Source of the DNA: a virus
Taxonomy: Duplodnaviria > Heunggongvirae > Uroviricota > Caudoviricetes
IMG/VR virus record: IMGVR_UViG_3300042892_003674
Strand: one strand, 5' to 3'
Length of the DNA stretch: 64,000 nt
The position numbers were made by a program, and so were the translations under genes. A model generated the notes under the pieces. The model did not search any database. It was given only the letters and a program-made list of their open reading frames with translations, and was not told the DNA's origin. Of this stretch, positions 5,845-61,300 are shown piece by piece; position 1 is the stretch's first letter; each line of letters opens with the position of its first letter.

Positions 5845-5846
5845 AG

Positions 5847-6002: not shown

Positions 6003-6008
6003 AATTTG

Positions 6009-6081: not shown

Positions 6082-6088
6082 ATGTTTG

Positions 6089-6161: not shown

Positions 6162-6171
6162 ATTATATTTG

Positions 6172-6245: not shown

Positions 6246-6250
6246 TTTTG

Positions 6251-6323: not shown

Positions 6324-6329
6324 ATTTTG

Positions 6330-6402
6330 TTCCCCCGCCGGGAGTCGAACCCGGCCCCATAAGTTAAAAGCCTATTGCCTACCGCCAGTTTGCTACGAGG
6401 GA
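6330..6402 (-). tRNA. tRNA with a UUU-type anticodon loop (third Lys-like). The D-arm is poor.
   Basis: Acceptor TCCCTCG/CGGGGGA, anticodon stem ATAGG/CTTAT with loop CTTTTAA, T-arm CCGGGTTCGACTCCCGG, 73 nt. Confidence 0.55.
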
Positions 6403-21600: not shown

Positions 21601-21858
21601 ATTTATTTTAAACTTAATTCATTAGATAATAGTCAAACTGGATTAAACTATCAATATATTGATCTTAATAATTCAACAAAAACGGTAAAACATGTTAAGA
21701 AAATTAAATTCTTCTTAGAAAATGAGGCAGAAAATAGACCATTTATATTTACATTAAAATTTAACTTAAATAGAAATAAAGTTATTGTAAGAAAATTCAA
21801 CTCAACTGGTGGTAGTCCAGCATATATAGATGATTGGTCAACATCAAGTAAAAAATAA
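18652..21858 (+). CDS. Large hypothetical virion-structural candidate.
   Basis: 1068 aa, Asn/Thr/Ser-rich, no enzymatic motifs. Confidence 0.85.
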   Translation: MVQSSFPKVADQIITYNKNIVEILSKINSLTTTTDSSVTLQVYDENGVLRNFTLPSFTSLKADIDRLNNNINSLYSIDAAGALIQTSTQNKYKKIITVDLNRDPTPIGSLGTLSTFKSSANWFFDSLMDPMVSVELDLSGKIEDNVRKCLIRRYIVDFAKNADGSFTTLGQSALNSYNQLFRSNANIIISEFENWYTTTTGLLNPTNPKYDEQMFDLEPNNLLYDGQFSVLRIQEDRLNRKLWYVLDTLDYLVVDTNSTRKLSIGDEVIINSEKTSTRYKILEVSTAESNPRIRVERVEGIEPIPVGIGTLKIYSSVIYTKRVRVSVGYNERNVLFVKPVNADNNLVAKKWSLGTGYYTNDLRLTSDSSANGLSMEQFYIDYVYDYGVVLQDLVAKKTPNSLAGTPGSPVLALDNFKVVQINKHLTDTPDSNLVKQKHNYQLSLKSEIQQLQEAILSRNKAAKFTKFKSDSAKKQADLEVEELTNKKDSKSKLLASVTQEVIDLSKDPKNKVAPKFSVRGFWTIPSAVVTTGTKPQEIVQFRIQYRYTSKDGREAPVDTFTITDSQSKASFSNWTEFKTDARKREYNTSTGEYTWAIEDVTSADTPNINQIDIPIQSNERVDIRIKSISEVGWPESAVESDWSEIITIDFPDDLNTIANENDFILTTATKEDLKISMNSELSAKGLDNHLADTVTVNNVTFHHDAKKILSGFQDENGVSLDLYVYIQKLSDRITSLEEKITRAKGELQIIILRNNQEFIVNNGSETTFNVECEDYCTLFNGQGAPTGRVYENNIYVIKDFVMKIKNNAKESLLGLLSNRTYLQSSSVYNTQAPQSFWVNNQDELLTNDVIETSQTRTHLDNQFVWQMNYDSITQNTVAKLSENIGNTFDNPTVNSNSITNILSTSDYNVGYNESSILKFIGNNKSLLDPAKWNDVTVSIASTTKFLTTIHPVVKSLENIQENNSDKVKTVNVGDKNSIIIPLNIYFKLNSLDNSQTGLNYQYIDLNNSTKTVKHVKKIKFFLENEAENRPFIFTLKFNLNRNKVIVRKFNSTGGSPAYIDDWSTSSKK

Positions 21859-38751: not shown

Positions 38752-39471
38752 TTATTTGTTTATTTGATTAAAAATATATTGCATTCCTTTTGTGGCAACT
38801 TTTTTCACGTGATGGAAATAAGGTAATTTGTAGTCTGGTATATCATACATAATCATATCTATATTAGATGGTTCAATATAATATACAGGTACTTTCACAT
38901 CTGTTAGAAATGGAATTTCATTTGCAGGTGAAACTTGTAATGAAGTTCCCACTATTATACAATAGTCACATTGTTCTGCTGCTTTTATTGCAGAGTTTAT
39001 ATAGTCTTGATTTAACATTTCTCCAAACCAAACGATATGAGGTCTTAATTGAGAGCCTTTATCACATTTATCTCCGATATTTACATCTTCTGTCCAATCA
39101 TAGATCAATCTTGGATCTAATGTTGAACGTACTTTAGTTAGTTCACCGTGTAAGTGTATTATGTTGGTAGATCCTGCTCTTTCGTGTAAGTCGTCGACAT
39201 TCTGTGTAACTACGGTTACATCAAATTCATTTTCTAATTCTGCAATAAGTCTATGTGCTAAGTTTGGTTTTACTTCTTTTAATTGAGCTCTACGCTCATT
39301 ATAGAATTTTAATACTAATTCTTTATCTTTTCGCCATGCATCAATAGTGGCAACATCTTCAATCTTGAAGTTATTCCACAAACTTTCCTTAGAATCTCTA
39401 AATGTCTCAATTCCACTTTCTTTAGAAACACCTGCACCAGAGAATACTAATATTTTTCTTTTATTATTCAT
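38752..39471 (-). CDS. Sir2-family NAD-dependent protein deacylase (CobB-like sirtuin).
   Basis: 239 aa; GAGVSKESGIETFRD, HLHGEL, PHIVWFGE, VGTSLQVSPA. Confidence 0.85.
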   Translation of the reverse strand: MNNKRKILVFSGAGVSKESGIETFRDSKESLWNNFKIEDVATIDAWRKDKELVLKFYNERRAQLKEVKPNLAHRLIAELENEFDVTVVTQNVDDLHERAGSTNIIHLHGELTKVRSTLDPRLIYDWTEDVNIGDKCDKGSQLRPHIVWFGEMLNQDYINSAIKAAEQCDYCIIVGTSLQVSPANEIPFLTDVKVPVYYIEPSNIDMIMYDIPDYKLPYFHHVKKVATKGMQYIFNQINK

Positions 39472-39517
39472 ATTTAATTATACTTAAAAGGATAAAATTA
39501 GTTTAGATACTATTAAT

Positions 39518-39533
39518 AAATTTATATATAGAT
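39518..39533 (+). promoter_or_regulatory. Upstream motif AAATTTATATATAGAT.
   Basis: 18 nt before the ATG at 39551. Confidence 0.35.
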
Positions 39534-39550
39534 AAAAACTAAACCGTTTA

Positions 39551-42500
39551 ATGAGTTCAACAAATTTAGTGAAAAAAAATCTATTCACCAAACCTTATTT
39601 AATAACCTTAGATGAATTAAATCAAATTGGTCAAGATATTAATTTAGTAGGATATGATCCACAATTAAATCTAACAAGTGATGATACCAATGTTGTTTTA
39701 AGATATGGTATACCTTGTAGTCCTAAACTTTTAAATTGGGTTGAACCTTATCAAATTGCAGGTATTGATTATACCTTATTTTATACAGAGGTTAATTCTG
39801 GATTTAGTATAGGAGATAGAGTATTTATAATAAATGGTACTTATGATAGTAATTTACTAATAACAAGTGATAAGTATAAAAAAGGTCATGACGGTTATAA
39901 AGTATTATTTGTAGATAAATGTCAGGTTGTATTAGACATAGAGTTTAATGGTATTTTGCCTAGTAATGAGACAACAGAACCTAGTGATGATTTAGATAAT
40001 TTAATTAAGGTTTACTATGTTAAAGATCAGAATGATTTTATTCATGTAAATAGACAGATTACAACTCGTGGAGATAACTTTGACTATAGATTTAATAGGA
40101 ATCAAAATAATATAATATTTTCTGAAAAACAAAGTTATGATCCAACTGGACCTTGGGGTGAGTCTTTAGGTTTATTAAATGGACCTGGATTTTTTATTAA
40201 AAATGGAACAGCAAGTTGGATAAATATAAGCAATGACTTTATGGTCGGTTCATATTCTATTGCGACTGCAAGTGATGCAAGTAATAAAATAGTTATATTA
40301 AATAATAGTTTTGAATTTCAAGGTTATGCATTTCAGGAAAATTTAGTTTATAGTTATGAAACAATTGGTACATTTTCTGGTTGGCAGGTAAATGTAAAAC
40401 ATGAAAATAAAAATGTTCCTCTAATATCTAAATCTAACTTTAGAAATGGTACTTTTAATGGAAATTGGAATGGTGGTATTTATGGTAGTAATGATAAAAG
40501 AATTACTTGGGGTTCTACCTCATCTATTTGGAACTCAGGTACTTTATTAAATACTATTTGGGAAAAGGGTATAATGGAGTCTAAACAAAGTCAACCACAA
40601 AGTTTTATTGCAGAATTTGATAGTATTGTAGGTACTTTTGGATCACCATACCAAAGATCAACTAATCCAGATAATGATGGATATGGTTATAACTTTGTTA
40701 TAAATTCAGAGATAAGAAATGCAATTATCAATAATGCAAATGTTAGTAATTCAGTATTAGGTACATCATCTATAACATATTCAATTGTAGAAGAACATCT
40801 AAGAGGAACACTGACATCACAATTTATTCAGGATAATTTTAGTGATACACTTATAAATAAGGCTTACTTTGAAAGTTGTGGTATTCAAAATGCTAATATA
40901 CAAAACTCAGTTGTAAAAAATTCAAGAGTTGAGAATAGTAGGTTTTATAATGTTAAGTCTATAAATACACAATATAAAAAGTCTTTATTTAAAAACTCTA
41001 ATTATATTAGTGATAATAAAATAAAAATATTACATTTTGAGGAAACAGATTTTAGTCAAAATGGTACAATACCAACACATAGAATTTATAAGTTCTATGT
41101 GAATAAAAGAAGTTATGAGAAATTTAAGTTTAAAGATTCCTTTTATATAAATGGATTAAAAATAAATAATGGTAGTAATTCATTACTTAACTTCTTTGAT
41201 AAAAAGTTTAAAATTGGTCCATATATTGATTATGTTGATCAATTTGATACTGCTAATCAAAAATGGTATAAAAGAGGATTTGAATATAATTGTTCAATTT
41301 CAACATCTAAGGAAAATGAATATCTATCTGATGTTGATATTGCTTTTACAAATTCAAATATTACAACTAACGAAGATCCATTTGGTTATTCAATTGATAT
41401 TTTTGTTTCTATAAATGATATTCAAGGTATTGCACAAACAGTTTATTCATATTCTGATATTATTGATTATTCAGAGGCATATATTTTAAATTCTGATTTT
41501 GAAAGTGGTGTTTTTGAGAATTCTAATTGGAATAGTGGTAATCACTTCAATTTTAGTAGTGATGTAAATATAACGTATAGTAAATCTAATAACCCTTTTT
41601 GGTATCTTGGTAATAGTGGAGATATTTCAAATAATGGTGGTTATTATGATATGTCATTAATTAGTGGAACATCATCTTTAAATGTTACTACACTTTACTC
41701 ATATAATCCTAATACTGGTAATAAATATCCTGAATTAGAAGAAGATTACTTGGCAATAAATGAAGTAGTATTTTTAAATGCAGTAGACTATGATACTAGA
41801 GGAAAGGTAGTAAGTATTACATTCTCTGGTACTGGTTCAAACTATTTAGGTGCTAGTAATTTATCTACTGTATATACTGGTTCTGGAACAGGACTAACTG
41901 TTGATATTACGGCAAGTCTTATTGGTTCAGTAACAGGCTTCAGTATAATATATGAAGGCTCTGGATTCCCAGATCCAAATTTGAACACTTATAGTACCTC
42001 TACTAACTCTACAGGAACTGGACTACAATTCAATATGGTTGGTGGTAATACCGCTTCTATATCTATTGAAAGTGCTGGATTAGGTTATACGGTAGGTGCA
42101 ACAGTATCTATGTTAAGAGGTGGTTTTGGTTATGATAATGATATTATTATGATTACTTCTGTAAATAATGGTGCTGTTTTATCAGTAAACGTTAATTATC
42201 CAGGTTTAGGTTATTCAGAAGGTGATATATTGACAATTCTTCAACCATTATCAAATAACAATGCAACTTTTTCGGTAACTGGAATAACTGGTTCACTGAC
42301 TAGATTACCAGATCAGTATAAAATAGTTAAAGATCTACCACAGGGTAATTATCAACTACAAGAAATTATTGCAACTGGTTCAACTAGTGTTTTACCTAAT
42401 TTATTACCAAATGGTAAATTTAGTTCATATGATGCAAATAATAGATATGGATATCTACATAAGACTAAATTCTATAGATCAAAAATAGTATCAGGTATAT

Positions 42501-44929
42501 TCAAAAAAGCTTATTTTAATACATCTTTAATTAAAAATGAATTATATGATGTTAGTGATAGAGATTTTAATAATATTGAAAAGATAAAAAATTTACTTAT
42601 AGTAGACTCGATATTTTCAGGTAATTCAAATATACTATCTAAGGCAACTTATATGAATTCATTTTTTGTTAATAACTCTGATATATGGGAAAATGGTATT
42701 TTATATAACTCTATCTGGAATGGTATGACATTTACTAATGGGTTAGTTAAATCATCAACTTGGTTAGACGGTATATTTAGTAACGGTCTATTCTATACTT
42801 CAAATAGTTTTGATGATGCTGATCAAAAAGCTTATAATCAAAATAATATAAATTCATTTTATAAGAGTGGTATCACTAAAAATGGTCTATTTAATAATAG
42901 ATTATCTTGGCAAAAAGGTACTTTCTTAAATGGTGAGTTCTATAAAAGTGATTGGGAAGATGGTCAGTTTAATGGAGGTAAATTTTATTACTCAAAATTC
43001 TATGGTGGTTTTATAAATGGTGGTATAATAGGAGATAAATCAATAGCTACTACTTATACTAAAGTTTATAGTGGTACTATAAATTATACAACTGTTGAGA
43101 ATGCCGAAGTTAGTGCTCAACCTACTAATAATATTACTAATGCAAGTACTAGTATTCAATGGAATAATGGTATATTTAATGGTGGTATTTTTAGTACATT
43201 TGATAGTTCTAATATCGCTACTTGGTCTGGTGGTATATTTAATGGTGGTGATTTCACAGGAACTGCAAAATGGTTAAATGGTATATTTAATGGTGGTAAA
43301 TTTACATCGATATATAACTCAAATATACTTAATTTATATGATGTAACAGATATTAGAAGCAACTATTCTTGGGAGTATGGTGTTTTTAACGGTGGTGAGT
43401 TTGGAACAGGAACTATAACAAATTCTAGTTGGTTTGATGGAGAGTTTAATGGAGGTTATTTTAAAGGTAAAGTTTGGAATAATGGAGTATTTACATTTGG
43501 TGAGTTTTCTGGAAGTGGTAAAACACAATCTGGTTATTATGCAACGGGCGGTACTGAATCAGGTAGTGCACAACAATTTGTATCATCTTTTGGTACTGTT
43601 ATAAATCCTAACACATATGGTATTTGGAAAGATGGTTTTGTAACAGATACCAAGGATAGATATATCAATAGAAGAATGTTTAGTGATTTAAAAAGAGTTA
43701 GTGATACGGATAAAATTATAAAATCTGCTTTAATAAGAGATGTGATTTGGATGAATGGAACATTCAGTCATCCAAGTGGAACTATACAAAACTCTGTTTG
43801 GTTAGATGGTACATTTGAAAATGGTACATTTAAGTCAAGTTCATTTAATCCATATGTAACTAGAAATATATTTTCACAACCTTTGGCTGCTAAAACTTTT
43901 AGTATTAGTGATACTTGTATTTGGAAAAATGGTAATCTTGTAGATAGTGATTTTTATATATCAAATTGGGAGAATGGTAACTTTATATCAGGAAATGGAT
44001 ATGGTATGATTTGGAAAAATGGTATCGTAAGTTATATGAATGCTTATAATATTTTCTGGGAGAATGGTCTTTGGAGAAATGGTAACTGGTATGGATCTAA
44101 CTTCAATCTAAATACAGATGGTAGTATAACTAATGATTTTGCAAGACAGATTCTATTTAGAGGTATGAATTGGGGAGGTACATCATCTTCTCATGTTTGG
44201 AATGTTTTCTATAATGAATTATTATCAGATGTCAATAGTAGTATAGAGTCACCTGCAAATAATGTGGCTTGGTCACCTGATCCTAATGCAGTTATTGATA
44301 ACACACCACCAGTTTGGTTAGGTAGTTCTACATTTGGTACACCACTGGCACCAACAAATCCAATAACTATAGTATATTTTGATACTGGTTTAAATACTGA
44401 TAGAGTAGATACCGATATTTCAATAAAAACTTTATTGACAAGTAATATAAGTAATTTAACTGCTCTTGCAGAATGGCAAATTAGTACAGATAATATAAAT
44501 TGGAGTTTTTATTCTTTAGTAACTACAACTGATAATTTATATACGTTTACTCCTCCTGGTGATAGTTATTTTAGAATTAAGGATGGTTTGTTAAATTCTA
44601 ATGTTTTAAAACATACACAAGTATCTGCAACATATGTATTAAATATGTCTAATCAACCAGCAGAACCTAATAATCCTTATGTTGTGGGTAGTGTAATAGT
44701 TAATGTAGCACCAGTAACACTAATCTTAGATGTATTTGGTGGTGTTTCTAGTGGTAATACTAGTAAAGGTGAAATTCAAATAAACTCGGTATCTATTCAT
44801 ACTACAGCAACAGCACCACAATATCAACATATATACTATTCAGTAGTAATAAATACAACCGGTACACATATGATAACTCTTATTGGTACATTTGCTGGTA
44901 ATTCAGGTAACTACGTTAGAATAGACTAA
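39551..44929 (+). CDS. Giant structural (tail-fibre-like) protein with W/F-NGG repeats.
   Basis: 1792 aa with many repeats of the form (W)xNG(I/V/L)FNGGxF(T/S), for example GIFNGGIFSTF, GGIFNGGDFTG, NGIFNGGKFTS, YGVFNGGEFGT, DGEFNGGYFKG. Confidence 0.9.
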   Translation: MSSTNLVKKNLFTKPYLITLDELNQIGQDINLVGYDPQLNLTSDDTNVVLRYGIPCSPKLLNWVEPYQIAGIDYTLFYTEVNSGFSIGDRVFIINGTYDSNLLITSDKYKKGHDGYKVLFVDKCQVVLDIEFNGILPSNETTEPSDDLDNLIKVYYVKDQNDFIHVNRQITTRGDNFDYRFNRNQNNIIFSEKQSYDPTGPWGESLGLLNGPGFFIKNGTASWINISNDFMVGSYSIATASDASNKIVILNNSFEFQGYAFQENLVYSYETIGTFSGWQVNVKHENKNVPLISKSNFRNGTFNGNWNGGIYGSNDKRITWGSTSSIWNSGTLLNTIWEKGIMESKQSQPQSFIAEFDSIVGTFGSPYQRSTNPDNDGYGYNFVINSEIRNAIINNANVSNSVLGTSSITYSIVEEHLRGTLTSQFIQDNFSDTLINKAYFESCGIQNANIQNSVVKNSRVENSRFYNVKSINTQYKKSLFKNSNYISDNKIKILHFEETDFSQNGTIPTHRIYKFYVNKRSYEKFKFKDSFYINGLKINNGSNSLLNFFDKKFKIGPYIDYVDQFDTANQKWYKRGFEYNCSISTSKENEYLSDVDIAFTNSNITTNEDPFGYSIDIFVSINDIQGIAQTVYSYSDIIDYSEAYILNSDFESGVFENSNWNSGNHFNFSSDVNITYSKSNNPFWYLGNSGDISNNGGYYDMSLISGTSSLNVTTLYSYNPNTGNKYPELEEDYLAINEVVFLNAVDYDTRGKVVSITFSGTGSNYLGASNLSTVYTGSGTGLTVDITASLIGSVTGFSIIYEGSGFPDPNLNTYSTSTNSTGTGLQFNMVGGNTASISIESAGLGYTVGATVSMLRGGFGYDNDIIMITSVNNGAVLSVNVNYPGLGYSEGDILTILQPLSNNNATFSVTGITGSLTRLPDQYKIVKDLPQGNYQLQEIIATGSTSVLPNLLPNGKFSSYDANNRYGYLHKTKFYRSKIVSGIFKKAYFNTSLIKNELYDVSDRDFNNIEKIKNLLIVDSIFSGNSNILSKATYMNSFFVNNSDIWENGILYNSIWNGMTFTNGLVKSSTWLDGIFSNGLFYTSNSFDDADQKAYNQNNINSFYKSGITKNGLFNNRLSWQKGTFLNGEFYKSDWEDGQFNGGKFYYSKFYGGFINGGIIGDKSIATTYTKVYSGTINYTTVENAEVSAQPTNNITNASTSIQWNNGIFNGGIFSTFDSSNIATWSGGIFNGGDFTGTAKWLNGIFNGGKFTSIYNSNILNLYDVTDIRSNYSWEYGVFNGGEFGTGTITNSSWFDGEFNGGYFKGKVWNNGVFTFGEFSGSGKTQSGYYATGGTESGSAQQFVSSFGTVINPNTYGIWKDGFVTDTKDRYINRRMFSDLKRVSDTDKIIKSALIRDVIWMNGTFSHPSGTIQNSVWLDGTFENGTFKSSSFNPYVTRNIFSQPLAAKTFSISDTCIWKNGNLVDSDFYISNWENGNFISGNGYGMIWKNGIVSYMNAYNIFWENGLWRNGNWYGSNFNLNTDGSITNDFARQILFRGMNWGGTSSSHVWNVFYNELLSDVNSSIESPANNVAWSPDPNAVIDNTPPVWLGSSTFGTPLAPTNPITIVYFDTGLNTDRVDTDISIKTLLTSNISNLTALAEWQISTDNINWSFYSLVTTTDNLYTFTPPGDSYFRIKDGLLNSNVLKHTQVSATYVLNMSNQPAEPNNPYVVGSVIVNVAPVTLILDVFGGVSSGNTSKGEIQINSVSIHTTATAPQYQHIYYSVVINTTGTHMITLIGTFAGNSGNYVRID

Positions 44930-44951
44930 AAAATATAATAAATAATATAAT

Positions 44952-46601
44952 ATGACACCAATAATATTAGAATGGTCAAACGCATTTGACGTAGATAATA
45001 ATATAACCGGATATGAGTTATCGTATAAAACAACTGGATCTTGGATATCCTTACCATTTATAACATCCTCACAAACAAGTGGGAGTTATAGTTTCACACC
45101 AACACAACAAGTTACTCATTCATTTAGAATAAGAGTTCGTGATTCATTTTCTGCTGTTAGTTCATATAAATATTTTAATTATGTAATTAGTGCAGAATAT
45201 CAAATATCAAGTGTTTATTATAATAATACTTTCGATGAAAATAATGACGTACGTGATACATGTCAGATTGTATCAGATCCAACAAATACTTACACAGATA
45301 TTTATCTTAGTAGTGCACCACCTGCTGTTGGAGTTATTGTTTATACAGATCAACAACAAACAAACGATTATTTTGGACATAATGAATATTGGATAATTAA
45401 ATCACCATCTGGATTACACTATTCATGTTGGATAGATGATTTTGGCGTTATCCAGGCGGTATATTTATGTGGTGCAAATAGTGCACAGATTTCGGCAAAT
45501 GCACCAAACTGGTTAGGTCGTTTGGCTGCATCACAAACCTGTGGATTAGCACTTACTGGTACTGTATATTGGGATTCACAGTATTCTTTTGCGGTTGGTA
45601 CAATATTATATACAGATCCATTATTCACGACACCATTAAACGGTCAATCAAGATTCTTTCGTATGGAATATACTAATTCACTTGGGTTGACTTTAACAAA
45701 GATTGTAAAAGTTGGTAATCTAACAAACCCATCGGTTATAGTTTCTATGGATAATGTATCTACTGTGTGTTCTGCACTTTTTATGGCATATAGAACTACA
45801 GGAACGAATTTCAATACTAGTTTGGGTAACTCAATCGATGGAACTTCTTTATGTCAATTATCCCCAAATACAAAATGTTATATAAGGGTAGCAGATCCAA
45901 GTATTATTAGTACTGGTGATATAGTATACACTGTTAGTGGAACGAACGCGGGACCAACCTTTAGTGGAGGTAACCAATATTATAATATGTATATAGCTTT
46001 TGCTGCTAATGGACCAAATACTAATGCAATTTGTCAGGTTGATGATTATGGTGTAATAACAGTGCAAGGATACTGTAGTGGTAGTTCTGCTGGTTGTTGT
46101 TTATTACCCGGTACAAATATAACCTTATTTGATGGTTCTACTATTAGTATAGAAGATATAATTGGTGGTGAATCATTACTAACTTATAATATTGAAGAAT
46201 CAACTTTTGAAGAAGGCTTAGTTACCAATATATTTACTCCAATACATAATGATATTGTAAAACTTGTAATCGGAGATAATACAATAGATTGTACATCAAC
46301 ACATCCTTTCTGGTCAGTAAATAAGAAAGAATGGGTTTCTTTAAATCCTAAAGAAACTATGCTTACTATGAATATAAATATCGAACATTTAGAAATTGGT
46401 GATATTTTATTAAATGAGAGAAATGAAGAAGTTATATTAGATGATATTATACAAATAGATAGTGAAGATATAGTAACTTATGATATTTCAGTAGAACCAA
46501 ATCACACATATTATGCTAATAGTATATTAGTTCATAATAAAACTGATGAAAATGGGAATGACATAATATTTAACCCTATTAATAATTTTACTAACCCTTA
46601 A
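44952..46601 (+). CDS. FN3-like structural protein with a C-terminal Hint (intein-like/BIL) domain.
   Basis: 549 aa. N-terminal fibronectin-III-like fold (ILEWSNAFDVDNNITGYELSYKTTGSW). C-terminal Hint domain, described in the next feature. Confidence 0.9.
   Translation: MTPIILEWSNAFDVDNNITGYELSYKTTGSWISLPFITSSQTSGSYSFTPTQQVTHSFRIRVRDSFSAVSSYKYFNYVISAEYQISSVYYNNTFDENNDVRDTCQIVSDPTNTYTDIYLSSAPPAVGVIVYTDQQQTNDYFGHNEYWIIKSPSGLHYSCWIDDFGVIQAVYLCGANSAQISANAPNWLGRLAASQTCGLALTGTVYWDSQYSFAVGTILYTDPLFTTPLNGQSRFFRMEYTNSLGLTLTKIVKVGNLTNPSVIVSMDNVSTVCSALFMAYRTTGTNFNTSLGNSIDGTSLCQLSPNTKCYIRVADPSIISTGDIVYTVSGTNAGPTFSGGNQYYNMYIAFAANGPNTNAICQVDDYGVITVQGYCSGSSAGCCLLPGTNITLFDGSTISIEDIIGGESLLTYNIEESTFEEGLVTNIFTPIHNDIVKLVIGDNTIDCTSTHPFWSVNKKEWVSLNPKETMLTMNINIEHLEIGDILLNERNEEVILDDIIQIDSEDIVTYDISVEPNHTYYANSILVHNKTDENGNDIIFNPINNFTNP
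46098..46538 (+). other. Hint domain (mini-intein / bacterial intein-like, no endonuclease).
   Basis: Block A CLLPGTNITLFDGSTISIEDI, block B TSTHPFW (TxxH), C-terminal blocks VTYDISVEPNHTYYANSILVHN. The residue after HN is Lys, so canonical splicing is unlikely and only cleavage is expected. Confidence 0.75.
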
Positions 46602-46624
46602 TAACGTGGTTAGACAGTATGAAA

Positions 46625-46640
46625 ATTTAATATATAGTTT
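46625..46640 (+). promoter_or_regulatory. Upstream motif AATTTAATATATAGTTTATG, the exact 17-mer.
   Basis: Ends at the ATG at 46641. Confidence 0.5.
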
Positions 46641-49600
46641 ATGCCATTTATAGATACAAACTTAAATCAAACCTGGGTTGTTGTACAAACACCAAGTACA
46701 GGTATAACTAGAAACTCTACTGTAGGATTATACTATATAAATAGTGTAACAAATAATCAATCTGTACTAAATCAACCGGATTATACAACGGGATATACAT
46801 ATAGTCAGGGAAAAAACTATCAGATAATTACAGAAGCATCTCCAGTATCTTCAACAATAGATAGTTTGTATGTTAGATTTAGTGCACCGTTTAAAGATTC
46901 GGTTGCATCAGTTACTAGAACTTTAGCTACCTCTTCAAGTGTTGGTTTTTATACTTATGCAAGTCCTTTATCTACACTAAAGTCGAAATCAATAGTTAAA
47001 TATGGTGCCAATGAAACTTTTGCACAATCAATAATTACAAATTCTACATTAAATGAAATTGACTTTCTAATAAATGGTTATAGAGAGTTTAGTTATCTAG
47101 ATATACCAATTGATGATAGTACTCAACCAAATGGTTGGTATTTTAATTCTGGTTCATATAACTGGTCTTATAACACTAATAATATAGCACCAACATATTC
47201 AGTATTTGGATCTGGATTAGATGATATTATTACTAAAAACTTTATTGCAAAACCTATCGAGTACGATACATTTAGTTTAGAGTTAAAATATACATCTTCT
47301 GCATTTACTAATACAAGTGATGGAATGAGTATTTATATAGTTAGGACTGATTTATTAAAATCACCAGGTTCTTGGGGTCCTTCTATTGTAAGTCTTACAA
47401 ATTCAACAACATTTGCAACTAGTAGTTTGGTAGGTACAAATACAAATGGTTCTAAAAATTATTTAGTTATTACTGCATCTCAGAGTGCTAATTATATGGC
47501 GAATTTATCTAATATTTATATTGTTGGTGCTTATCATCCGGATAATAATAGATTGCAACTAACTAGTGATGGTAGTAATAGTTATTCTGGTACTACACCA
47601 ATAATGGTTGATCTACCTAGTGCAACATATTCACACACATTATTACAAAATGGAATACCTTATATACTATCATCTAGAATTGGTAATGGTTTATTTAGGG
47701 TTGGTATTTGGGAAAATGGTGTTTGGAATAGTGGTTGGAGAGATGATGAAGAATCTAGAGATTTTGATGATGTTGCATTTTCGGTTTTAACTGAGTCTGA
47801 TATCTCATGGAAGATTGAAATTAGAGGTTCTACATATTCAATTGGAAACTTTGCAACTGGGTCAGCAGTATCAATTGGTAATATTGTTGCGATAGATATA
47901 AATGATAATAGAAAACTTTTAAAAGATTTTTATAAAATAGAGAATTTAGGTATTGGTTATAATTACTCACCAACTGGAGAGACGCAATCTGCATATGGAT
48001 GGTTAAGAGTAAATCTAGATACTACTTTCCCTTACAGAAGAATTGAAAAAGATTCACAAAATCACAAGATAAAAGTAACTAAAAATATTTGGTTATCGGG
48101 TGGATTCTTCAATGGGTATTTCTCAGGTGTTTGGAATAATGGACTATTCAAAGGATTTCCACTTATTACAGAGATGTTCAATACACATTGGATTGATGGA
48201 TTCTTTAATGGAGGTCGCTTTAATTCTATCTATTCAGATGTTTATACATTTAGTGGATTAGAGCCTCGTCAAGCATGTAGCAATGGTTATATAAATCTTA
48301 CATTTTTGGATCAGTATACATCATTCTTACCGGGAGATTATATATTGATTACACTATCTAGTGGAGTTAGTAGTAGTTTTGGTGGAATTGCACAAGTTAT
48401 TGCAGTAGATCATCAGATTGATGCAAATGGTGATATAAGAGATGTTATTACGATTGATAAGATATTTAGTGGTAATATATTATACTCTTCTACAGGAACT
48501 ATTTTAGGATCTGTAATAAGATATACTGCAACTGGTCTAATACAAAACTTTAAATTCTATGATAATAATAGATCTAAAATAAAATCAATTGATAATCCAT
48601 TATCAACTGCGGTATTTAGCTTTAATTCTTGGATTGATGTAAATTATGATGATACAAGATCGGTTACTTTAGGTAGAGATTTTAGAATGTATGAACCGCT
48701 TACAAAAAAATCTATAAATAGAAATAACTTATATGGTTATCCAACTTATGACGTTTTGGGATCTTTATCACGTTTTAGAGATAGTAATACTTTAGATTAT
48801 AAGTTATATAAATTAGGTACTAAATATAAGGTATTTACAGACCTTGTTGGAAATGGTTCTGGATTTAACGAACCATTTAATGAGTTAGACTTTAGTAATT
48901 TTACAAATGCTGGTTGGACATATTCATATAGTAATGTAAATAATTTTACTTTAAAAAGAACAGAGAATATAATATCATTAAATAATACAACATCTACAGA
49001 TTTCTTAAACTCTGGGGTGACTGGTGATGAGTTATATATAACTGCAAGTAATACTGGATTGATATTAAATAATAGTAATGTAAATATTCTAAAATCTAGA
49101 TATTCAGTTATAGAATTTGATGTTATAACGTATAGTGTTACAAACTATAACTTTACATATAAAAATCCTGATATTTATTTAGGAAAAGGTATTGATAGTA
49201 CTGGTTTAACATTTAGTGAGTCAATTTTTGCGGGCCCACTTTCATCACTAAGTAATACTATAACAAGTAGTTATATACTATCAGGTCCTTCTGGTATAGA
49301 AGTAGATGATATTGTAGTTATGGTTGATTTATATGGTGATGTACCTGGTACAACAATTAATTTAAGAGCACCTAATGGTAGTATAATAAATCTTAAAAAG
49401 AATGGAAGTGGTTTGGGTGGAAGACTGGCAAAAACTAAATTTAGTTTAAGAGATGTTTATACTAAATTCAGTCTAATTACAACACCATACAGTTTAAATA
49501 ATACAACTATTTCTTATACTGATACGTATTTAATGGATAGAGAAATAAGTCAAGGTGATGCACCATATTTATCTGATGTTAATACATTATCAGCATTGAC

Positions 49601-51233
49601 AAGTTTAAATACATCCATTTATGGCACATGGACATTATACATTAAATATAATCCACTTGGTGTAGTTCCTTGTGATTTAACAAATTGGTCAATAACTATT
49701 CAATATAAAGACTTGGTTAGTATAGATACAGAACCAATTTCAACATTACCAATATTAAACTTTTCTAATCTTAATTATGATATTACTACACAATTATCTG
49801 GTTATGACAATGTACAAATTTACAAGAAAATGAATTATCTCCCAATACGAGAAAATGTCAACCATCTAAGAGTTAATAATACATTTAGATTGGACTCTAT
49901 TGAAGAATCTAGACCTACTAAGTGGGGTGGATTTGGAAAAAATCAACCAACTAAAAAGTACGAGTATTTCTATAATAAAACTGATATGATGTTAAGTATC
50001 AACGGTAATGGTGCAACAGGTGCAAGTACATCAATGGTTGTATTAGATAATCTTAACGTGTATGAAGTAGATATGATTCCATTCTTTAAATATTTTGATG
50101 AGTCAAATATTTATAAAGGAATACAAATTCCATATATTGGAGAAGCACCTAATATTGATTATCTAAATTCAGACTTTGTATTCATTGATAATATTACTGT
50201 TGGTGTTGATGCAATTGATGCAAATGGAAATAACTCACTCGGAGTAAATTGTCAGGTTGGTGTGGTGATTACTAATAGTGACACATTTACTGTTGTTCCA
50301 AACCCATCTATACTGGCAAGAAATAATACTGATGATGTTACATTAAATGCAACTACAACTGGAACATTAGCACTTGATCCTACGACAGTTAGTTGGTCAC
50401 TTGTATCTGGAAATCCAATAACAATTATTGCAAGTAATACTTTAACACCTACCATAACAGGGTTATCATCTGGTACTTATCAGCTTAGAGTTGCAGCAAC
50501 ATCTGTTTTACCAGGTTCGATATCACCTTCTGCACCATCACCTTCTGCACCATCATCAGGACCTCAAATACCAGTAACTTCGGAGGCATTTGTTACTATT
50601 GTTGTTGGTGTACCTGCGGTTAGTGGTCCTTCGATAACAATTACGAATCCTAATAAGAGTAAAGGTATTACATATAGTTTGGATGATCTAAACCTACAAT
50701 TCCCTGGTAAGAATTTAACTTATACTGAACTTATTTCCGGATATAGTAGTTCGGTGGGTATGGCGGCTAGTATTAAAATTACTTCACTAACAAATATTGG
50801 TAATTTAATTATTGATAATGGTTCATATACTAATTTAACAGTAAATAGTATTATTACAGTGGGTGATTTAATTTCAGGAAGAATGGCTTATTTTCCTTTT
50901 AGTAATCCAACATATACAACAGGAACGACAATACCAGAAACTACTGCAATTGGATCACATTATTCAACATCATTCTCATATGTAATTATTGATAGTGCTG
51001 GTAATATAAGTCCACAAACTGTTACATTTACATTATACTGTACTAAAGTTAATGCTTTGTCTGGACCTAGTCCAAGTCCTAGTTCATCTCCTAGTCCTAG
51101 CTCATCTCCACCTTCTTCTGGTGAACCATCAAATGCATCGGGAGATCAAGATGAAATACCATCACCAGCATCTGATGGTGGTCCTAGTGATGATGGAGGT
51201 GATGGATATGATTATGATCCTTATGGTGGTTAA
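46641..51233 (+). CDS. Giant structural protein with FNGG-type repeats and a Pro/Ser-rich C-terminal linker.
   Basis: 1530 aa; WLSGGFFNGYFSGVWNNGLFKGF, HWIDGFFNGGRFNS. The C-terminus contains SPSAPSPSAPSSGPQ and PSPSPSSSPSPSSSPPSSGEPS. Confidence 0.9.
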   Translation: MPFIDTNLNQTWVVVQTPSTGITRNSTVGLYYINSVTNNQSVLNQPDYTTGYTYSQGKNYQIITEASPVSSTIDSLYVRFSAPFKDSVASVTRTLATSSSVGFYTYASPLSTLKSKSIVKYGANETFAQSIITNSTLNEIDFLINGYREFSYLDIPIDDSTQPNGWYFNSGSYNWSYNTNNIAPTYSVFGSGLDDIITKNFIAKPIEYDTFSLELKYTSSAFTNTSDGMSIYIVRTDLLKSPGSWGPSIVSLTNSTTFATSSLVGTNTNGSKNYLVITASQSANYMANLSNIYIVGAYHPDNNRLQLTSDGSNSYSGTTPIMVDLPSATYSHTLLQNGIPYILSSRIGNGLFRVGIWENGVWNSGWRDDEESRDFDDVAFSVLTESDISWKIEIRGSTYSIGNFATGSAVSIGNIVAIDINDNRKLLKDFYKIENLGIGYNYSPTGETQSAYGWLRVNLDTTFPYRRIEKDSQNHKIKVTKNIWLSGGFFNGYFSGVWNNGLFKGFPLITEMFNTHWIDGFFNGGRFNSIYSDVYTFSGLEPRQACSNGYINLTFLDQYTSFLPGDYILITLSSGVSSSFGGIAQVIAVDHQIDANGDIRDVITIDKIFSGNILYSSTGTILGSVIRYTATGLIQNFKFYDNNRSKIKSIDNPLSTAVFSFNSWIDVNYDDTRSVTLGRDFRMYEPLTKKSINRNNLYGYPTYDVLGSLSRFRDSNTLDYKLYKLGTKYKVFTDLVGNGSGFNEPFNELDFSNFTNAGWTYSYSNVNNFTLKRTENIISLNNTTSTDFLNSGVTGDELYITASNTGLILNNSNVNILKSRYSVIEFDVITYSVTNYNFTYKNPDIYLGKGIDSTGLTFSESIFAGPLSSLSNTITSSYILSGPSGIEVDDIVVMVDLYGDVPGTTINLRAPNGSIINLKKNGSGLGGRLAKTKFSLRDVYTKFSLITTPYSLNNTTISYTDTYLMDREISQGDAPYLSDVNTLSALTSLNTSIYGTWTLYIKYNPLGVVPCDLTNWSITIQYKDLVSIDTEPISTLPILNFSNLNYDITTQLSGYDNVQIYKKMNYLPIRENVNHLRVNNTFRLDSIEESRPTKWGGFGKNQPTKKYEYFYNKTDMMLSINGNGATGASTSMVVLDNLNVYEVDMIPFFKYFDESNIYKGIQIPYIGEAPNIDYLNSDFVFIDNITVGVDAIDANGNNSLGVNCQVGVVITNSDTFTVVPNPSILARNNTDDVTLNATTTGTLALDPTTVSWSLVSGNPITIIASNTLTPTITGLSSGTYQLRVAATSVLPGSISPSAPSPSAPSSGPQIPVTSEAFVTIVVGVPAVSGPSITITNPNKSKGITYSLDDLNLQFPGKNLTYTELISGYSSSVGMAASIKITSLTNIGNLIIDNGSYTNLTVNSIITVGDLISGRMAYFPFSNPTYTTGTTIPETTAIGSHYSTSFSYVIIDSAGNISPQTVTFTLYCTKVNALSGPSPSPSSSPSPSSSPPSSGEPSNASGDQDEIPSPASDGGPSDDGGDGYDYDPYGG
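50523..50552 (+). repeat. Perfect 15-nt tandem duplication encoding SPSAP x2.
   Basis: tcaccttctgcacca x2. Confidence 0.8.
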
Positions 51234-51247
51234 AACTAAAATATAAT

Positions 51248-51772
51248 ATGAATTTAAAATACGGAAAAATAGATGTAGATGTAAAGTGGAAATCACCAAG
51301 TGTAGAGTCATTTTTTTCTTGGCGTGATGATTTTTTCAAAATACCCAATGCAGAAAAATTTGATGTTTACTTATTAGGAAGTTTTGCAAATAAATTAGTA
51401 GATAATACTGGTACACCCAGTGATATTGATATTATTTTAACAGGTCATCACAATATTTATGATATTGAAAATGTAATATATCAGGGTACAAAACTAGGAA
51501 TAGAAAAGTATAGTATATTTTTTGATATTCAGTGGCATAGTGAGATAGTATTTTATAATAATATGGAAGATATTCAAAAGAAGAAATCAAATCAAGTATA
51601 TATGCATGGTAATAAATGGATAGTAAATGATGAGGTAAAAAAAGATTATAAAAATTCCGTAAAAGTATGTGAAAGTTTATATAAACTTAATTGTTATTGG
51701 CCTAGTGTTAAACAAACAGAGAGAATTAAAAATGGATATGTTTATAAAGATCCATTTTTAATTAACTACTAG
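51248..51772 (+). CDS. Minimal nucleotidyltransferase-fold protein.
   Basis: 174 aa; GSFANKLVDNTGTPSDIDIIL (GS...DxD motif of the Pol-beta NTase superfamily). Confidence 0.65.
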   Translation: MNLKYGKIDVDVKWKSPSVESFFSWRDDFFKIPNAEKFDVYLLGSFANKLVDNTGTPSDIDIILTGHHNIYDIENVIYQGTKLGIEKYSIFFDIQWHSEIVFYNNMEDIQKKKSNQVYMHGNKWIVNDEVKKDYKNSVKVCESLYKLNCYWPSVKQTERIKNGYVYKDPFLINY

Positions 51773-52469
51773 TAATTAGTAAGTAACCTACTTTACCAGG
51801 TTCATTTTTAGAACAGTGACCCATTGCATCAATACGAGTCTCTTCACCAGTTAGTTTTATTTTAGAAAGTTTTTGTTTGCCTAAAATACGTTTTTCACCA
51901 TTACAAGTTTTACAAGGTGTTAAACCTACTTTACCTTTACCAAAACAAAAAGAACATTCTTGACCCATATATTGTCCAGTTCCCTCACAGAAGTCACATC
52001 CATCATCAGAGTCAAATATCTTTAAGATATTACCATCATTATCTTTAATGATGATTTTAGATGAAAGATCTTTACCAGTACCATCACAAGGTTTACAACG
52101 AACCCATCGTTCATATTCTAAAGTACCATCAAAAGTATGATCAACTTTAATATGAATGTTAAAAACCTCATTCTTTTTAAAATTTTCTAATTTATCTTTT
52201 GTATCATCATGTGAATAATCAAAATTTGTTTCAAATAATTCAAAGTATTCATTATAACAGTTTCCAAACTTACTTTTTTTATCATAGTCTTCTCTTTCCT
52301 CACCACACAAGACATCATAAGCTTCGGTCATCTCACCAAAGATAATAGCATCACCTCCTTTGTCAGGATGGTTCTCAAATGAGAGTTTATAATACGCTTT
52401 CTTAATTTCTTTTTCAGTTGATGTATTTGCTACACCAAGTAAAGAATAATAATTTTTATTTAAGTTCAT
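51762..52469 (-). CDS. DnaJ-like protein: J-domain plus CxxCxGxG zinc finger.
   Basis: 235 aa; N-terminal J-domain with HPD (YYKLSFENHPDKGGD); CKPCDGTG, CDFCEGTG, CSFCFGKG, CKTCNGE. Confidence 0.8.
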   Translation of the reverse strand: MNLNKNYYSLLGVANTSTEKEIKKAYYKLSFENHPDKGGDAIIFGEMTEAYDVLCGEEREDYDKKSKFGNCYNEYFELFETNFDYSHDDTKDKLENFKKNEVFNIHIKVDHTFDGTLEYERWVRCKPCDGTGKDLSSKIIIKDNDGNILKIFDSDDGCDFCEGTGQYMGQECSFCFGKGKVGLTPCKTCNGEKRILGKQKLSKIKLTGEETRIDAMGHCSKNEPGKVGYLLITSS

Positions 52470-52671
52470 GTGCTATTATTAGTTCTGATATTTTTTCTTC
52501 TATAATCAAATATTCATAGTTTAAGACAATATCAGAAACATCTTCTGAAAACTCATCTTCAATTATTAAACAATCTGTGTTCTCGATAAAAGAAATCAAT
52601 TTCTTCAATCCTTGGCTTTGATAAACCGTTAAAATCTTTTCCTTACTTAAATAGCGCTTGTTAAATCCCAT
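52456..52671 (-). CDS. Hypothetical small acidic protein.
   Basis: 71 aa. Confidence 0.45.
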   Translation of the reverse strand: MGFNKRYLSKEKILTVYQSQGLKKLISFIENTDCLIIEDEFSEDVSDIVLNYEYLIIEEKISELIIAHELK

Positions 52672-56117: not shown

Positions 56118-56296
56118 ATTAGACTAAAGTCATGCTCTTGTACATAAACTCCAGGACTAATATACATATTCTTTTCTGTAAGACCTAATAATCTTCTTAA
56201 TTTTTTTAAACGATTATGATGTCGAACACTCTTTTTTAATCTTTCATCATAGTTCAGATTTGTATATGGATCATTATGTGGTATATATCTACTCAT
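56114..56296 (-). CDS. Hypothetical small basic protein.
   Basis: 60 aa. Confidence 0.4.
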   Translation of the reverse strand: MSRYIPHNDPYTNLNYDERLKKSVRHHNRLKKLRRLLGLTEKNMYISPGVYVQEHDFSLI

Positions 56297-56618
56297 TTAC
56301 TTTAAATATATTATTGATTTTTCTTTTTCTTGTTTTGTGTTTTGTATCACCATATTGATAATCCATATAATGTAAAGTGCCTAATGGTGCAGACATTGGT
56401 TGAACTGATACTAAATCTAATCCTACAGTTCGTGCGGCTACTTTCATTGCGATTGGTAACATATTAGTAAAACTTGACGAAGTGCTTGTTGTAGTTTGTG
56501 ATTGAAGACCAGCGTATTGTGACATCCAGGTTGCTTTAGATCCAGTTAGGCCCATATTTCCAATAAGATTGTCCCATTTATCTTGAGTATCTTTTCTGGT
56601 ATTTTTTAAATTTTTCAT
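56289..56618 (-). CDS. Hypothetical protein.
   Basis: 109 aa. Confidence 0.55.
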   Translation of the reverse strand: MKNLKNTRKDTQDKWDNLIGNMGLTGSKATWMSQYAGLQSQTTTSTSSSFTNMLPIAMKVAARTVGLDLVSVQPMSAPLGTLHYMDYQYGDTKHKTRKRKINNIFKVNE

Positions 56619-58348: not shown

Positions 58349-61300
58349 TTATTTAATTTTTCTATTTACTAGTATACCTAAACCATGAGATTCTTTATAG
58401 TTATAAAATTCTAAATCATAGTTGTGTGATAATTCTTGACAAGCTCTTTTTACTTCAGGAAAAGATTCGGTATCATGAAAAATTGTAACTCTTGAATGTT
58501 GTACTGACCAGGCACCACATTCATATGTATGTTCAAAGTCATGAATTATATCAATATGTACTAATCCATAATTATCTGAGTTATCTTTAATAAAATCCTT
58601 ATAATCAGACTTTACTAATTCAATATTTTTATATGATTCTAAATAACTTTTAGTTTGTTCTAAATGAACATCTTTTATATTACTATGGATATCCCCAGTG
58701 AATGTATCCACTCCTATTACATTAGTAAAGTAGTTAGATATTGCAGAAGTTGAATATCCATATTCTACACCAAATTCTAAGGCATTAGTTGTATCAATAT
58801 CAAATCTTTCAATAATGTCTTTTAAAATAGTTGGTATATTACCCCAAGCAGAAGGACGTGGTTGTTCTGCCAATCTTGGAAAGTCTCTATTTTCGGGAAA
58901 AAACTCTATTTCATTATTACTTCTATATTGTGGAGTTTTACCAGATTCTATTATAGATATTACTTGTTTAGATGTAATTGATTTACTACACTCAAACTGT
59001 TTATCAGTTCCTTTATTTACTGGACACCAATTCCAGTCACCTGCATCTAGCCTATAAGTATTGAAACATCCATTACAGACGGATTCATTAAATATTCTAA
59101 TAACATTATCATCTAATGGTTCAGTAACAGGTTTACTAAACCCTGATATAATTACGGTCTTTTTATTTAAAGCCCAAGATAACCAACTAATACCGGAACT
59201 TATACCAATAAACATTTCACAGTTATATAAATATGTCATTAAAGTATCCATAGAATTATCTTTCATATAAAGTACTCCTTTTGGATTTACATTACCCATA
59301 TATCCACTTTCTTCAGAACTTACAATCACAACTTCATAACCTTTTAATTTATAGTGATCTACAATTTCTTGCCAACCGTTTGGATTATTCCAATACTTTG
59401 CTTGTGCAGTTGAATGTATTGCAATACAAATATATTTGGTATCCAATGGTGATTCTCTATTTATCACTTTAAGAAATGGTTTTATTGAACTTTCTTTCAA
59501 TCCTAAAATATCGGATGTTGTTGCTTGTAAAGGTATATTTTTAAAGTCCCTTGGATTTTTATAAATATTTATTTTATTATTATCATAAAACCATCCTATC
59601 ATATAATTACAATAAGTATTCTCATAATTTGCACCAGGATTTACAAAGTGTAACCTAGGATATTTTTCAGTCTCAAATAAAAAGTTCTTAAATGTACTAA
59701 GAATTACAACACAGTTATTTTTTTCTGCAAACTCATTTACATGTGGCATCCACGCTAATGTATCCCCTAAAGATGATGAATCTAAACTAACTCTAACAAT
59801 TTTATTATCTAAATCAAATTTGTTAATAGTTATCTCATTTGTTGATAAATTTTGAATTTCTATTCTCCAATTTACAAAATATTTTATAGAGCATCTAGTC
59901 CATTGATTTGGTGATATGGTACATTCATATAGCAAATTATCACTATTAGAATCTATAAACTTAATAAGGTATTTATAATCTGAATCACCAAGTACTTCTA
60001 CAAATGGTCCATCTAAATAATTTACTATTATTTTATCTTCTTTCTTATTGATAAAATCTATATTATCTAATATACCAGGTGTTTTAATATTTATAGATCC
60101 TGTCGCATCATCAATATTAAATATGTCTGAATCTACAGAAATACCTTTTTCTAAATCACTTCTATTAATTTTTATTAGTTTACATTTTTCATTTGCAGTA
60201 ATTACATATTTTTTACTATCTATTGATAGATTATAATTTTGCCCATTATTTTGCATAAAAACAATATAATAATTATTATCATTTTTTGCTATCATGCAAC
60301 CAGAACTGGAAATCCAACGAGTGTTTACTGCTATAGCATTTACTATATTATTTTGTCTTATTGTATCAATATCAATTAAATGATATTTAATATTATTCTC
60401 AATTATTGTGGATCCAATAACATTTTCTAATGTTACTGAACCAGGATATTTGAAATAGTTTCTTTTTGAATTTAGATCTTTTACAATAGTATTAAATAAA
60501 GAAATATTTACCGAAAAGAATCCTGTATTTACTGCTAATTTTTCATTATATGTATTCCATTTATAACTAACAAGATCGTTACTATCTAGTAGTAGTGAGT
60601 TATTCTCTAATGTATCATCATTTATTACATAATCATAATTTACAAAGTGAACCTTCTCAAATCCATTCAGTTCTGCTAATATACCGGCATTTTTTATTAG
60701 TTTAAGTGCTGCATAACTGTGATTAAAATCAAATGGTTTTGTAACATCAAAATCATTAAAACTCCAAAATGTAAATATTGTATCACTTGTATATTCTTTT
60801 GACTCTTTAAAAGTTATTGTTGGATTATCTCTATCAATTATAACATAGTCTGATAAACTACTTATATGTTGTGGTATATCTATATGAGAAGATATAATCG
60901 TGGTATATCCATTTCTTTTATTTGCAAGTACACATTTTTCTAATAAATCTAATTTTTCATCATCATCTGCGTGTGACATAACAATAACCACATCATCTTT
61001 GGTTATTTCAAATTTTGTATTCATATCTACTATTTCCTTTAGTGTATTGAATCCATCTTTACCAATTTTACTCCAATTAAAATTACTTTTAATTATTTCG
61101 GCATCTTTTAAGGCAGATTCTTTTTTGGTTTGATAGTTTTCATAACAATCAATTAAAACTCTCTGTAAATCATTATAATCAGGTTCTGCGTATAATCCAG
61201 GTGTATCACCAGCAAATCCCAAATCTTTACCTATATTCGCAGATAATTCTGTTCTTATAGCAACTGGATTTCCTAATCCTTGTGCAAATTCTAATTGAGC

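Follow-up and report, generated by a model that had tools for sequence, protein, structure and literature searches.

A Hint domain at the very end of a phage protein raises the question of what it does to the protein that carries it: whether it removes itself, hands the protein to a partner, or does no chemistry at all. We addressed this question for the gene at 44952-46601 of a 64,000-nucleotide stretch of virus DNA (IMG/VR record IMGVR_UViG_3300042892_003674; the whole stretch is called the window below). An earlier note on this DNA had placed an intein-like Hint domain at the C-terminus of the encoded protein and had proposed that it may release or covalently attach an FN3 module during virion assembly. 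Our analysis identifies the domain as a Hint of the bacterial intein-like (BIL) type. With a probability of roughly 0.5, to judge from its sequence and relatives, it is an active autoprocessing cassette resembling type A BILs, which sits at the C-terminus of a megaphage accessory protein and would remove itself.

The C-terminal domain is a BIL-type Hint

The domain, its blocks and the residues that follow it lie as listed here.

46098-46538, plus strand: Hint domain, a mini Hint resembling type A BILs (residues 383-529, 147 residues, 16.6 kDa), supported by a stop-free translation, profiles and a model
46098-46139, plus strand: block A, CLLPGTNITLFDGS, with Cys383 (Cys1), the predicted nucleophile of the N-S acyl shift
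46293-46304, plus strand: block B, T448-S-T-H451 (TxxH)
46479-46538, plus strand: blocks F and G, YDISVEPNHTYYANSILVHN, ending in His528-Asn529
46539-46598, plus strand: C-terminal tail, K530-P549 (20 residues, 2.3 kDa), with Lys at +1

Based on profiles and a predicted structure, residues 383-529 form a genuine Hint domain of the bacterial intein-like type. The translation of 46098-46538 (CLLPGTNITLFDGS...IDCTSTHPFW...YDISVEPNHTYYANSILVHN) contains the hallmark blocks that the earlier note had read from it, namely Cys383, TSTH and the terminal His-Asn, and is contiguous over 147 residues, with no homing endonuclease. The profile search which that note had named as a check was run, and the Pfam model Intein_splicing (PF14890) matched over its full length (model positions 2-155 of 155) with an E-value of 8.4e-9 and 35.9 bits (cut-off 35.8), while the NCBIfam model intein_Cterm (TIGR01443) scored 24.6 bits on blocks F and G, above its cut-off of 15.6. 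PT-HINT (PF07591) reached 27.0 bits, just below its cut-off of 27.7. In a phmmer search of PDB sequences, both BIL2 (6y75/6tmm; E 1.9e-13) and the C. thermocellum BIL (2lwy; E 1.2e-6) outranked the DnaB mini-inteins.

The predicted fold agreed with the profiles. In an AlphaFold2 model built from an alignment of 17 homologues, the predicted local distance difference test score (pLDDT) was 80-93 over the Hint and about 30 over residues 531-549, predicting a disordered tail. A Foldseek search with the Hint model placed BIL2 first (template modelling (TM) score 0.92, root-mean-square deviation (rmsd) 1.5 Å), followed by 2lwy (TM 0.88) and then by mini-inteins, with Hedgehog 1at0 only at rank 29. 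The nearest characterised relatives in both sequence and structure are BIL domains, as the earlier note had proposed from the arrangement, and canonical inteins, Hedgehog domains and PT-HINT toxin modules fit less well. We take both BIL2 and 2lwy to be A-type BILs. The tail begins with Lys, as that note had stated; its length of 21 residues was corrected to 20 (K530-P549), followed by the stop codon.

As a separate observation, the Pfam model AXH (the ataxin-1/HBP1 module) matched the Hint at 33.1 bits against a gathering cut-off of 33 and scored up to 77 bits in relatives (P0043-P0144), and HBP1 AXH chains were among the PDB sequence matches. This cross-match suggests either an unrecognised relationship between Hint and AXH or a contaminated model.

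Catalytic positions are conserved under purifying selection

Although overall identity in the alignment of 17 homologues falls to 22%, C383, T448, H451, Y510, N523, L526, V527, H528 and N529 are invariant across it, and K530 at position +1 and C382 at position -1 (Cys in 16 of the 17) are nearly so. The Cys382-Cys383 junction lies at 46095-46100; the -1 Cys might act as a redox trap, bind metal or take part in thioester chemistry.

Substitution rates were estimated by the Nei-Gojobori method against two orthologues (L021 and L022). The ratio of nonsynonymous to synonymous rates (dN/dS) was 0.23-0.24 for the Hint, which is under strong purifying selection, 0.44-0.68 for the repeats that precede it and about 0.55 for the tail. 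Identities among close orthologues were 85-92%, 56-71% and 45-55% for the same three parts. The tail comprises at least 4 residues in every orthologue, or 5 to 23 when Lys530 is counted. The synonymous rate (dS) of the Hint in these comparisons (0.17-0.28) is about half that of the repeats (0.43-0.46), which fits both a recent exchange of the cassette and a constraint that includes the codon level. Whichever explanation holds, the Hint is not a decaying element.

The C-terminal module is an exchangeable cassette

The remainder of the gene and its two neighbours are as follows.

44952-46601, plus strand: whole gene, encoding a 549-residue precursor (60.6 kDa, isoelectric point 4.3), plus stop codon
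44952-45191, plus strand: FN3-like domain (residues 1 to ~80), from a sub-threshold Pfam fn3 match, the AlphaFold2 model and Foldseek
45249-46079, plus strand: three tandem Cys-bracketed beta-domains of ~75-83 residues each (residues ~100-175, ~193-275 and ~296-376)
46080-46097, plus strand: Gly/Ser linker (GSSAGC) ending in Cys382 at position -1, the N-terminal junction of the Hint
39551-44929, plus strand: upstream giant gene (1792 residues), 22 nt before the Hint gene, a conserved neighbour
46641-51233, plus strand: downstream giant gene (1530 residues), 39 nt after the Hint gene, a conserved neighbour

The start of the gene is common to its orthologues (MTPIILEW...), and no signal peptide was found in the 549-residue protein. 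Pfam fn3 matched the N-terminal part below threshold (E 0.0097), but the FN3 domain claimed by the earlier note is backed by the AlphaFold2 model of residues 1-380 (mean pLDDT 83, and 80-92 in the FN3-like domain), in which residues 1 to ~80 superpose on FN3 domains with a Foldseek probability of 1.0 (rmsd 3.2-3.7 Å over ~82 columns). The three beta-domains share the motif C..G.I.YT..G....I...D..C at a mutual identity of 30-34% and constitute the most variable region of the protein. In a fold search of the PDB with the N-terminal part, the FN3 domain alone was matched and the three repeats had no solved relative. Fold matches in BFVD were uncharacterised Caudovirales proteins (E down to 2e-11) and, more weakly, tip-attachment, tail-fibre and phage G gp424-427 proteins. 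A PHROG search with the whole protein gave no match of known function, its single hit being phrog_21885 (unknown function; residues 86-173, E 4.5e-9). From these data we infer an accessory protein of surface type, built of FN3 and three beta-repeats and probably virion-associated when mature; to call it structural, as was done before, is plausible.

On related contigs the genes recur in the order SIR2 (minus strand), giant gene, the gene described here, giant gene, a gene of ~174 residues, DnaJ (minus strand) and SbcC (minus strand), and the Hint gene always lies between two giant repeat proteins at gaps of 14-39 nt. The locus was found in four states. In the first, the gene carries the Hint lineage of the query (P0001-P0012, P0014, P0019 and P0027). 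In the second, it carries another, shorter BIL-like Hint with 28% identity to that of the query and with 2lwy as its best PDB match (P0018, P0028 and P0029). The third state is without Hint and shows a Gly-rich linker followed by a conserved domain of ~110 residues (P0013, P0015-17 and P0020-26). In the fourth, represented by LR756502, the gene is absent and the two giant genes are directly adjacent. The giants of LR756502 (314313-341204, L017) are also shorter, at 1324 and 1048 residues. The whole three-gene block is size-variable among Mahaphage-type genomes.

The alternative domain of ~110 residues (KIICNLLYSQGFLSKEIWEADEKFGRL...KRKKRRK; for example L002 9111-10985) has a poly-basic end. 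It had no match in Pfam, PHROGs or PDB sequences, and a homologue search with it gave one fragment. In the orthologues, the alternative C-terminal modules are joined at the linker that precedes the query Hint, and the linkers at this point are Gly-rich in those without Hint. Moreover, the two halves of the protein differ in their relationships: P0012, P0014 and P0019 share ~73% identity with the query in the Hint and only 23-43% in the N-terminal part, while for P0011 the Hint identity is 42% and the N-terminal identity 55-72%. Because the locus states differ and the similarities of Hint and N-terminal part are incongruent, the C-terminal module is an exchangeable cassette joined at the Gly-rich linker. 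Neither the alternative C-domain as a separate gene nor a second Hint, either of which could serve as a trans-acting partner, turned up below E 1 when the window was searched.

Both flanking proteins are dominated by W-x-[ND]-G-x-F-x-[NG]-G-x-F repeats of beta-helix-like appearance, and their sole Pfam matches, Pentapeptide_4 and K319L-like PKD, were sub-threshold. The 1792-residue protein extends at its C-terminus into an FN3-like part, which its LR756502 orthologue lacks, and the 1530-residue protein has P-domain/PKD-like segments and a Pro/Ser-rich, strongly acidic tail (…DGGDGYDYDPYGG). The earlier description of two giant fibre-like genes was borne out as to size, while "fibre-like" draws on the repeats and on weak fold similarity. 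A promoter and terminator scan of 39000-52600 returned counts at the level of shuffled sequence, and operon status is based solely on the spacing of 22, 39 and 14 nt.

The Hint belongs to a large HN-K subfamily

An HMMER scan with the query Hint and tail against 1.84 billion representative proteins yielded 4075 proteins at E ≤ 1e-3, of which 727 were at E ≤ 1e-10. Residues were counted in the 290 complete domains of the best 150 of these 4075 proteins. Cys1 is present in 284 domains (98%) and the terminal HN in 260 (90%). At position +1, 204 of the 290 domains have Lys (185) or Arg (19), and the residues counted at -1 were Gly (65), Cys (64, or 22%) and Ser (43). Tandem arrays of two to seven Hints (HNK-GG-CF..., HNK-CF...) occur in 101 of the 150 proteins. 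The last Hint ends within 25 residues of the protein terminus in 64 of 146 cases, 17 of the 146 ending exactly in ...HNK. Since a +1 Lys and a short tail recur in many HN-K relatives, they are traits of the subfamily and not peculiar to the query gene. The C-terminal flank is dispensable in the family, because the tail is disordered and variable and many relatives end at or near HNK. In addition, the conserved +1 Lys and the frequent -1 Cys suggest a chemistry beyond simple hydrolysis.

The homologues of the query include BUBL-type proteins (RLRGG|CF ... HN-x-MQIFVK), and HNK endings also occur on IMG/VR phage contigs. One such contig, of 434 kb, encodes a Hint-ended protein of 1284 residues (1292 codons from stop to stop) close to a tail-tube gene, and both the N-terminus of this protein and those of its two upstream neighbours have weak tail-fibre PHROG matches. 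A recurrent viral and metagenomic type (the 925-residue open reading frames (ORFs) of L010-L014, and P0030, P0042, P0053 and P0112) has an N-region of ~460 residues ending in ...SHN, then Ala-Pro and a tandem array of two or three HN-K Hints, the last of which closes the protein exactly at HNK. The longest array in the wider family has seven Hints (P0031).

Proposed mechanism of self-removal

Type A BILs, as characterised in PMC4031507 and PMC7664689, end in His-Asn, are without a nucleophile at +1 and yield cleavage products for the most part; PMC4031507 also allows for splicing by aminolysis, with cleavage products dominant. According to PMC7765530, they sit in variable regions of non-conserved proteins and not at conserved enzyme sites. 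The query Hint appears to show every sequence-level feature of this published definition, namely the Cys nucleophile, the Thr..His of block B, the terminal His-Asn and a +1 residue other than Cys, Ser or Thr. Its siting agrees as well: it is a variable C-terminal module in an accessory gene that is absent in LR756502.

In the mechanism that we favour, Cys383 would attack the Cys382-Cys383 peptide bond after folding, in an N-S acyl shift aided by Thr448 and His451, and the 41.8-kDa N-terminal part would then be held as a thioester. Optionally, Asn529 would cyclise with the aid of His528, and the 2.3-kDa tail led by Lys would be cut off. The thioester would be resolved mainly by cleavage, giving a mature protein of 382 residues with Cys382 as its new C-terminus, and the Hint of 16.6-18.9 kDa would be discarded. 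The Hint would thereby be a one-shot maturation module that removes itself, and one among the several C-terminal modules that are exchanged at the locus.

Several points weigh against this mechanism. Its activity is deduced from conservation alone, and, given the low dS of the Hint, part of the apparent conservation may stem from recent exchange rather than from constraint. N-terminal cleavage by itself would not require a strict His-Asn with Lys at +1; because Hedgehog Hints lack the His-Asn and Lys, yet both are conserved here, participation of the C-terminal junction or of the Lys in the chemistry is suggested. Furthermore, the near-invariant -1 Cys is unaccounted for, and the C-domain that Hint-less orthologues keep in the mature protein is no less consistent with an attachment end than with a disposable one.

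Alternative explanations

The last of these points leads to the alternative that survives best, which we regard as possible though the smaller prospect. It is an acyl transfer like that of BUBL proteins, in which an amine or a different nucleophile, and not water, intercepts the Cys382 thioester and the module of FN3 and beta-repeats is anchored by its C-terminus without ATP. The acceptor, which is only hypothetical, would be a Lys in one of the two neighbouring giants or in some other virion protein, or less probably a nucleophile on the host surface or a lipid. PMC8616854 reports that BIL2, the nearest relative, makes Lys isopeptides and conjugates its N-flank to several substrates; however, the BIL literature describes mostly plain cleavage. 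The Gly-rich flanks at -1 (GGG-C|C) resemble the ubiquitin RLRGG|C junctions of BUBL-type members, although these members have ubiquitin-like flanks and differ at +1 (A/S/M, then MQIFVK), the query belonging to another subgroup. The conserved His-Asn-Lys and the -1 Cys would be superfluous for mere hydrolysis. The poly-basic-ended C-domain that Hint-less orthologues carry on a Gly-rich linker suggests that the C-terminus is the attachment end, and the gene is invariably sandwiched between giant repeat proteins at 14-39 nt, whereas the presence of the 549-residue protein in the virion is itself presumed. In its fullest form, which we consider doubtful, the Hint would be a one-shot, ATP-independent virion-building ligase, by which the adhesin module would be welded to a Lys of the giant proteins, to another nucleophile or to the host surface.

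Cis-splicing in the manner of type A BILs is unlikely. Cyclisation of Asn529 would free the alpha-amine of Lys530 (or its epsilon-amine would act), and the 20-residue tail would be ligated to Cys382, giving a product of N-terminal part plus tail of ~44.1 kDa. The mechanism has been proposed for type A BILs (PMC4031507), but cleavage prevails in those that were tested. The His-Asn and +1 Lys are kept in orthologues and subfamily, and the orthologues always have a tail of at least 4 residues; however, this tail shows little conservation (45-55% identity, dN/dS ~0.55), is disordered and spans 5-23 residues with Lys530, and many relatives stop at HNK, so that a ligation would gain them nothing. 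The earlier statement that classical splicing is not possible holds for class-1 splicing, which is excluded because the +1 nucleophile is absent (Lys530), while "not possible" is too strong for type A BILs, which can splice by aminolysis.

It is improbable that the Hint is chemically inert, a structural or binding module within a 549-residue chain that functions intact. Folds derived from Hint can lose catalysis, and AXH, which cross-matches the family in Pfam, is a non-catalytic module, but all catalytic positions of the query are invariant under purifying selection and, among the 290 related domains, 98% retain Cys1 and 90% the terminal HN.

That the Hint is a selfish or degenerate intein, which once interrupted a longer gene (N-terminal part plus ~110-residue C-domain) whose C-extein has since been truncated, or else a PT-HINT without its toxin, is very unlikely: Hint-less orthologues do occur at the same locus and the PT-HINT score of 27.0 bits lies just below 27.7, but there is no endonuclease, nearly all members have Lys at +1 and not a decayed Cys, Ser or Thr, purifying selection is strong, and the gene has only a 20-residue tail and neither a toxin nor an immunity gene.

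More specific candidates were also rejected. A tail that is a remnant C-extein found no support when the tails were aligned to residues 1-30 of the alternative C-domain (500 shuffles each, p 0.07-0.95). A canonical class-1 intein is at odds with Lys530 at +1 and with the Hint-less alleles, which lack contiguous exteins and carry an unrelated domain of ~110 residues. A PT-HINT toxin module was discarded on its score below the cut-off, the 20-residue tail and the nature of the downstream gene, which encodes the 1530-residue repeat protein. A Hog domain of the Hedgehog type is contradicted by the conserved HN and the rank of 1at0 (29), nothing but the disordered 20-residue tail following the Hint. 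A BUBL protein was dismissed since the N-flank consists of FN3 and beta-repeats, without a ubiquitin-like domain.

Phage origin and genomic setting

The window has a G+C content of ~29%. The ORF at 18652-21858 is 75% and 68% identical to "uncultured phage" genomes LR745206 (635 kb) and LR756502 (642 kb), respectively, and ~30% identical to Lak megaphages. We take LR745206 and LR756502 to be Mahaphage genomes of Al-Shayeb et al. 2020. The window is therefore part of a Mahaphage-type megaphage genome, from freshwater. The window also encodes an NAD-dependent ligase, an S1 protein, SIR2, DnaJ, an SbcC-like protein and M16 and M28 peptidases.

Outside the locus, twelve tRNA genes (Lys ×3, Phe ×2, His ×2, Trp ×2, Ser ×2 and Arg) lie at 5112-6402 on the minus strand, adjoined by a tyrosyl-tRNA synthetase gene (7661-8914, minus strand). 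The one clear virion gene of the window is the ORF at 145-4068 (plus strand, 1307 residues), which lies ~40 kb from the Hint gene and whose product matches tail-spike and virion-structural PHROGs repeatedly, six times in all (E 1e-76). At 58349-62176 (minus strand), a fusion protein of 1275 residues combines GT1 glycosyltransferase, GT9 (heptosyltransferase-like) and methyltransferase domains. The 109-residue ORF at 56289-56618 (minus strand) has an orthologue (L022 16848-17177) with a precomputed Pfam match to Gp23 (T4 major capsid), which is odd for such a size.

Searches for the gene in deposited genomes gave little. The whole 549-residue protein had no tblastn match at E 1e-5 in 50,697 phage records, and none of the deposited Mahaphage and Lak genomes among these records has the gene or a close Hint. 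A scan of GTDB genomes gave only a distant, partial Hint in a metagenome-assembled genome of Planctomycetota, and the 623-kb NCBI contig with P0027 was not recovered.

Significance

BIL-type Hints have been described in surface and toxin proteins of bacteria and in the polyubiquitin-like loci of ciliates, and our literature search found no paper on a BIL-type Hint as the C-terminal cassette of huge-phage proteins. Most likely, the locus presents a known chemistry in an unstudied setting, in which the protein either excises its Hint or is handed to a partner. If the Hint only cleaves, it is an ordinary maturation device; if it ligates, it would offer a new route to phage appendage assembly and a compact natural ligation tag. 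In the latter case it would be the phage counterpart of "ubiquitination by protein splicing" in BUBL proteins, the basic ~110-residue C-domain of sister phages would be a non-covalent answer to the same attachment problem, and the HN-K subfamily, in which Hints are often arrayed in tandem, would represent a general means of cross-linking proteins covalently. Four states of one accessory protein in related megaphages amount to a natural experiment, and the locus opens onto a large, uncharacterised HN-K Hint subfamily.

Comparison with known systems

Several known systems share features with the query Hint. The C. thermocellum type A BIL (2lwy), its second-best match by sequence and structure, has the same Hint fold, Cys1, TxxH and terminal His-Asn, without Cys, Ser or Thr at +1 and without an endonuclease, and type A BILs are likewise located in variable, non-essential proteins and not in conserved enzymes. 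In contrast to these, the query Hint belongs to a megaphage and not a bacterium, occupies the extreme C-terminus with a disordered flank of 20 residues, and bears the HN-K signature, with a -1 Cys that is frequent in its subfamily. BIL2 of Tetrahymena thermophila BUBL1 (6y75/6tmm) is the best match in both sequence (27-28% identity) and fold, and also lacks a +1 nucleophile. However, BIL2 is eukaryotic, has ubiquitin-like domains on both sides and an N-flank ending in Gly-Gly, and its +1 residue is not Lys; isopeptide conjugation is shown for it in PMC8616854, whereas it is only hypothetical for the query Hint.

PT-HINT (PF07591) resembles the query in that the Hint sits towards the C-terminal end of a large multidomain protein, secreted or at the surface, and is thought to release the part downstream, but the query has neither toxin domain nor immunity gene and scores under the cut-off. 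Hedgehog proteins (Hog, 1at0) share the C-terminal Hint, the thioester with N-terminal cargo, the self-removal on transfer to a nucleophile and a junction of the Gly/Cys-Cys-Phe/Leu type; they are a distant match, and they lack the terminal His-Asn, while the query lacks a sterol-recognition region. Class-1 mini-inteins (DnaB, gp41-1) have the same fold and blocks A, B, F and G, but the query differs in its +1 Lys and does not interrupt a conserved protein at a conserved site. Finally, the Peptidase S74 chaperone domains of phage fibres and spikes (PMC7824862), which had no match in the Pfam scan of the 549-residue protein, offer a functional analogy only: they too are self-removing C-terminal modules, but with an unrelated fold and chemistry (a Ser-Lys dyad).

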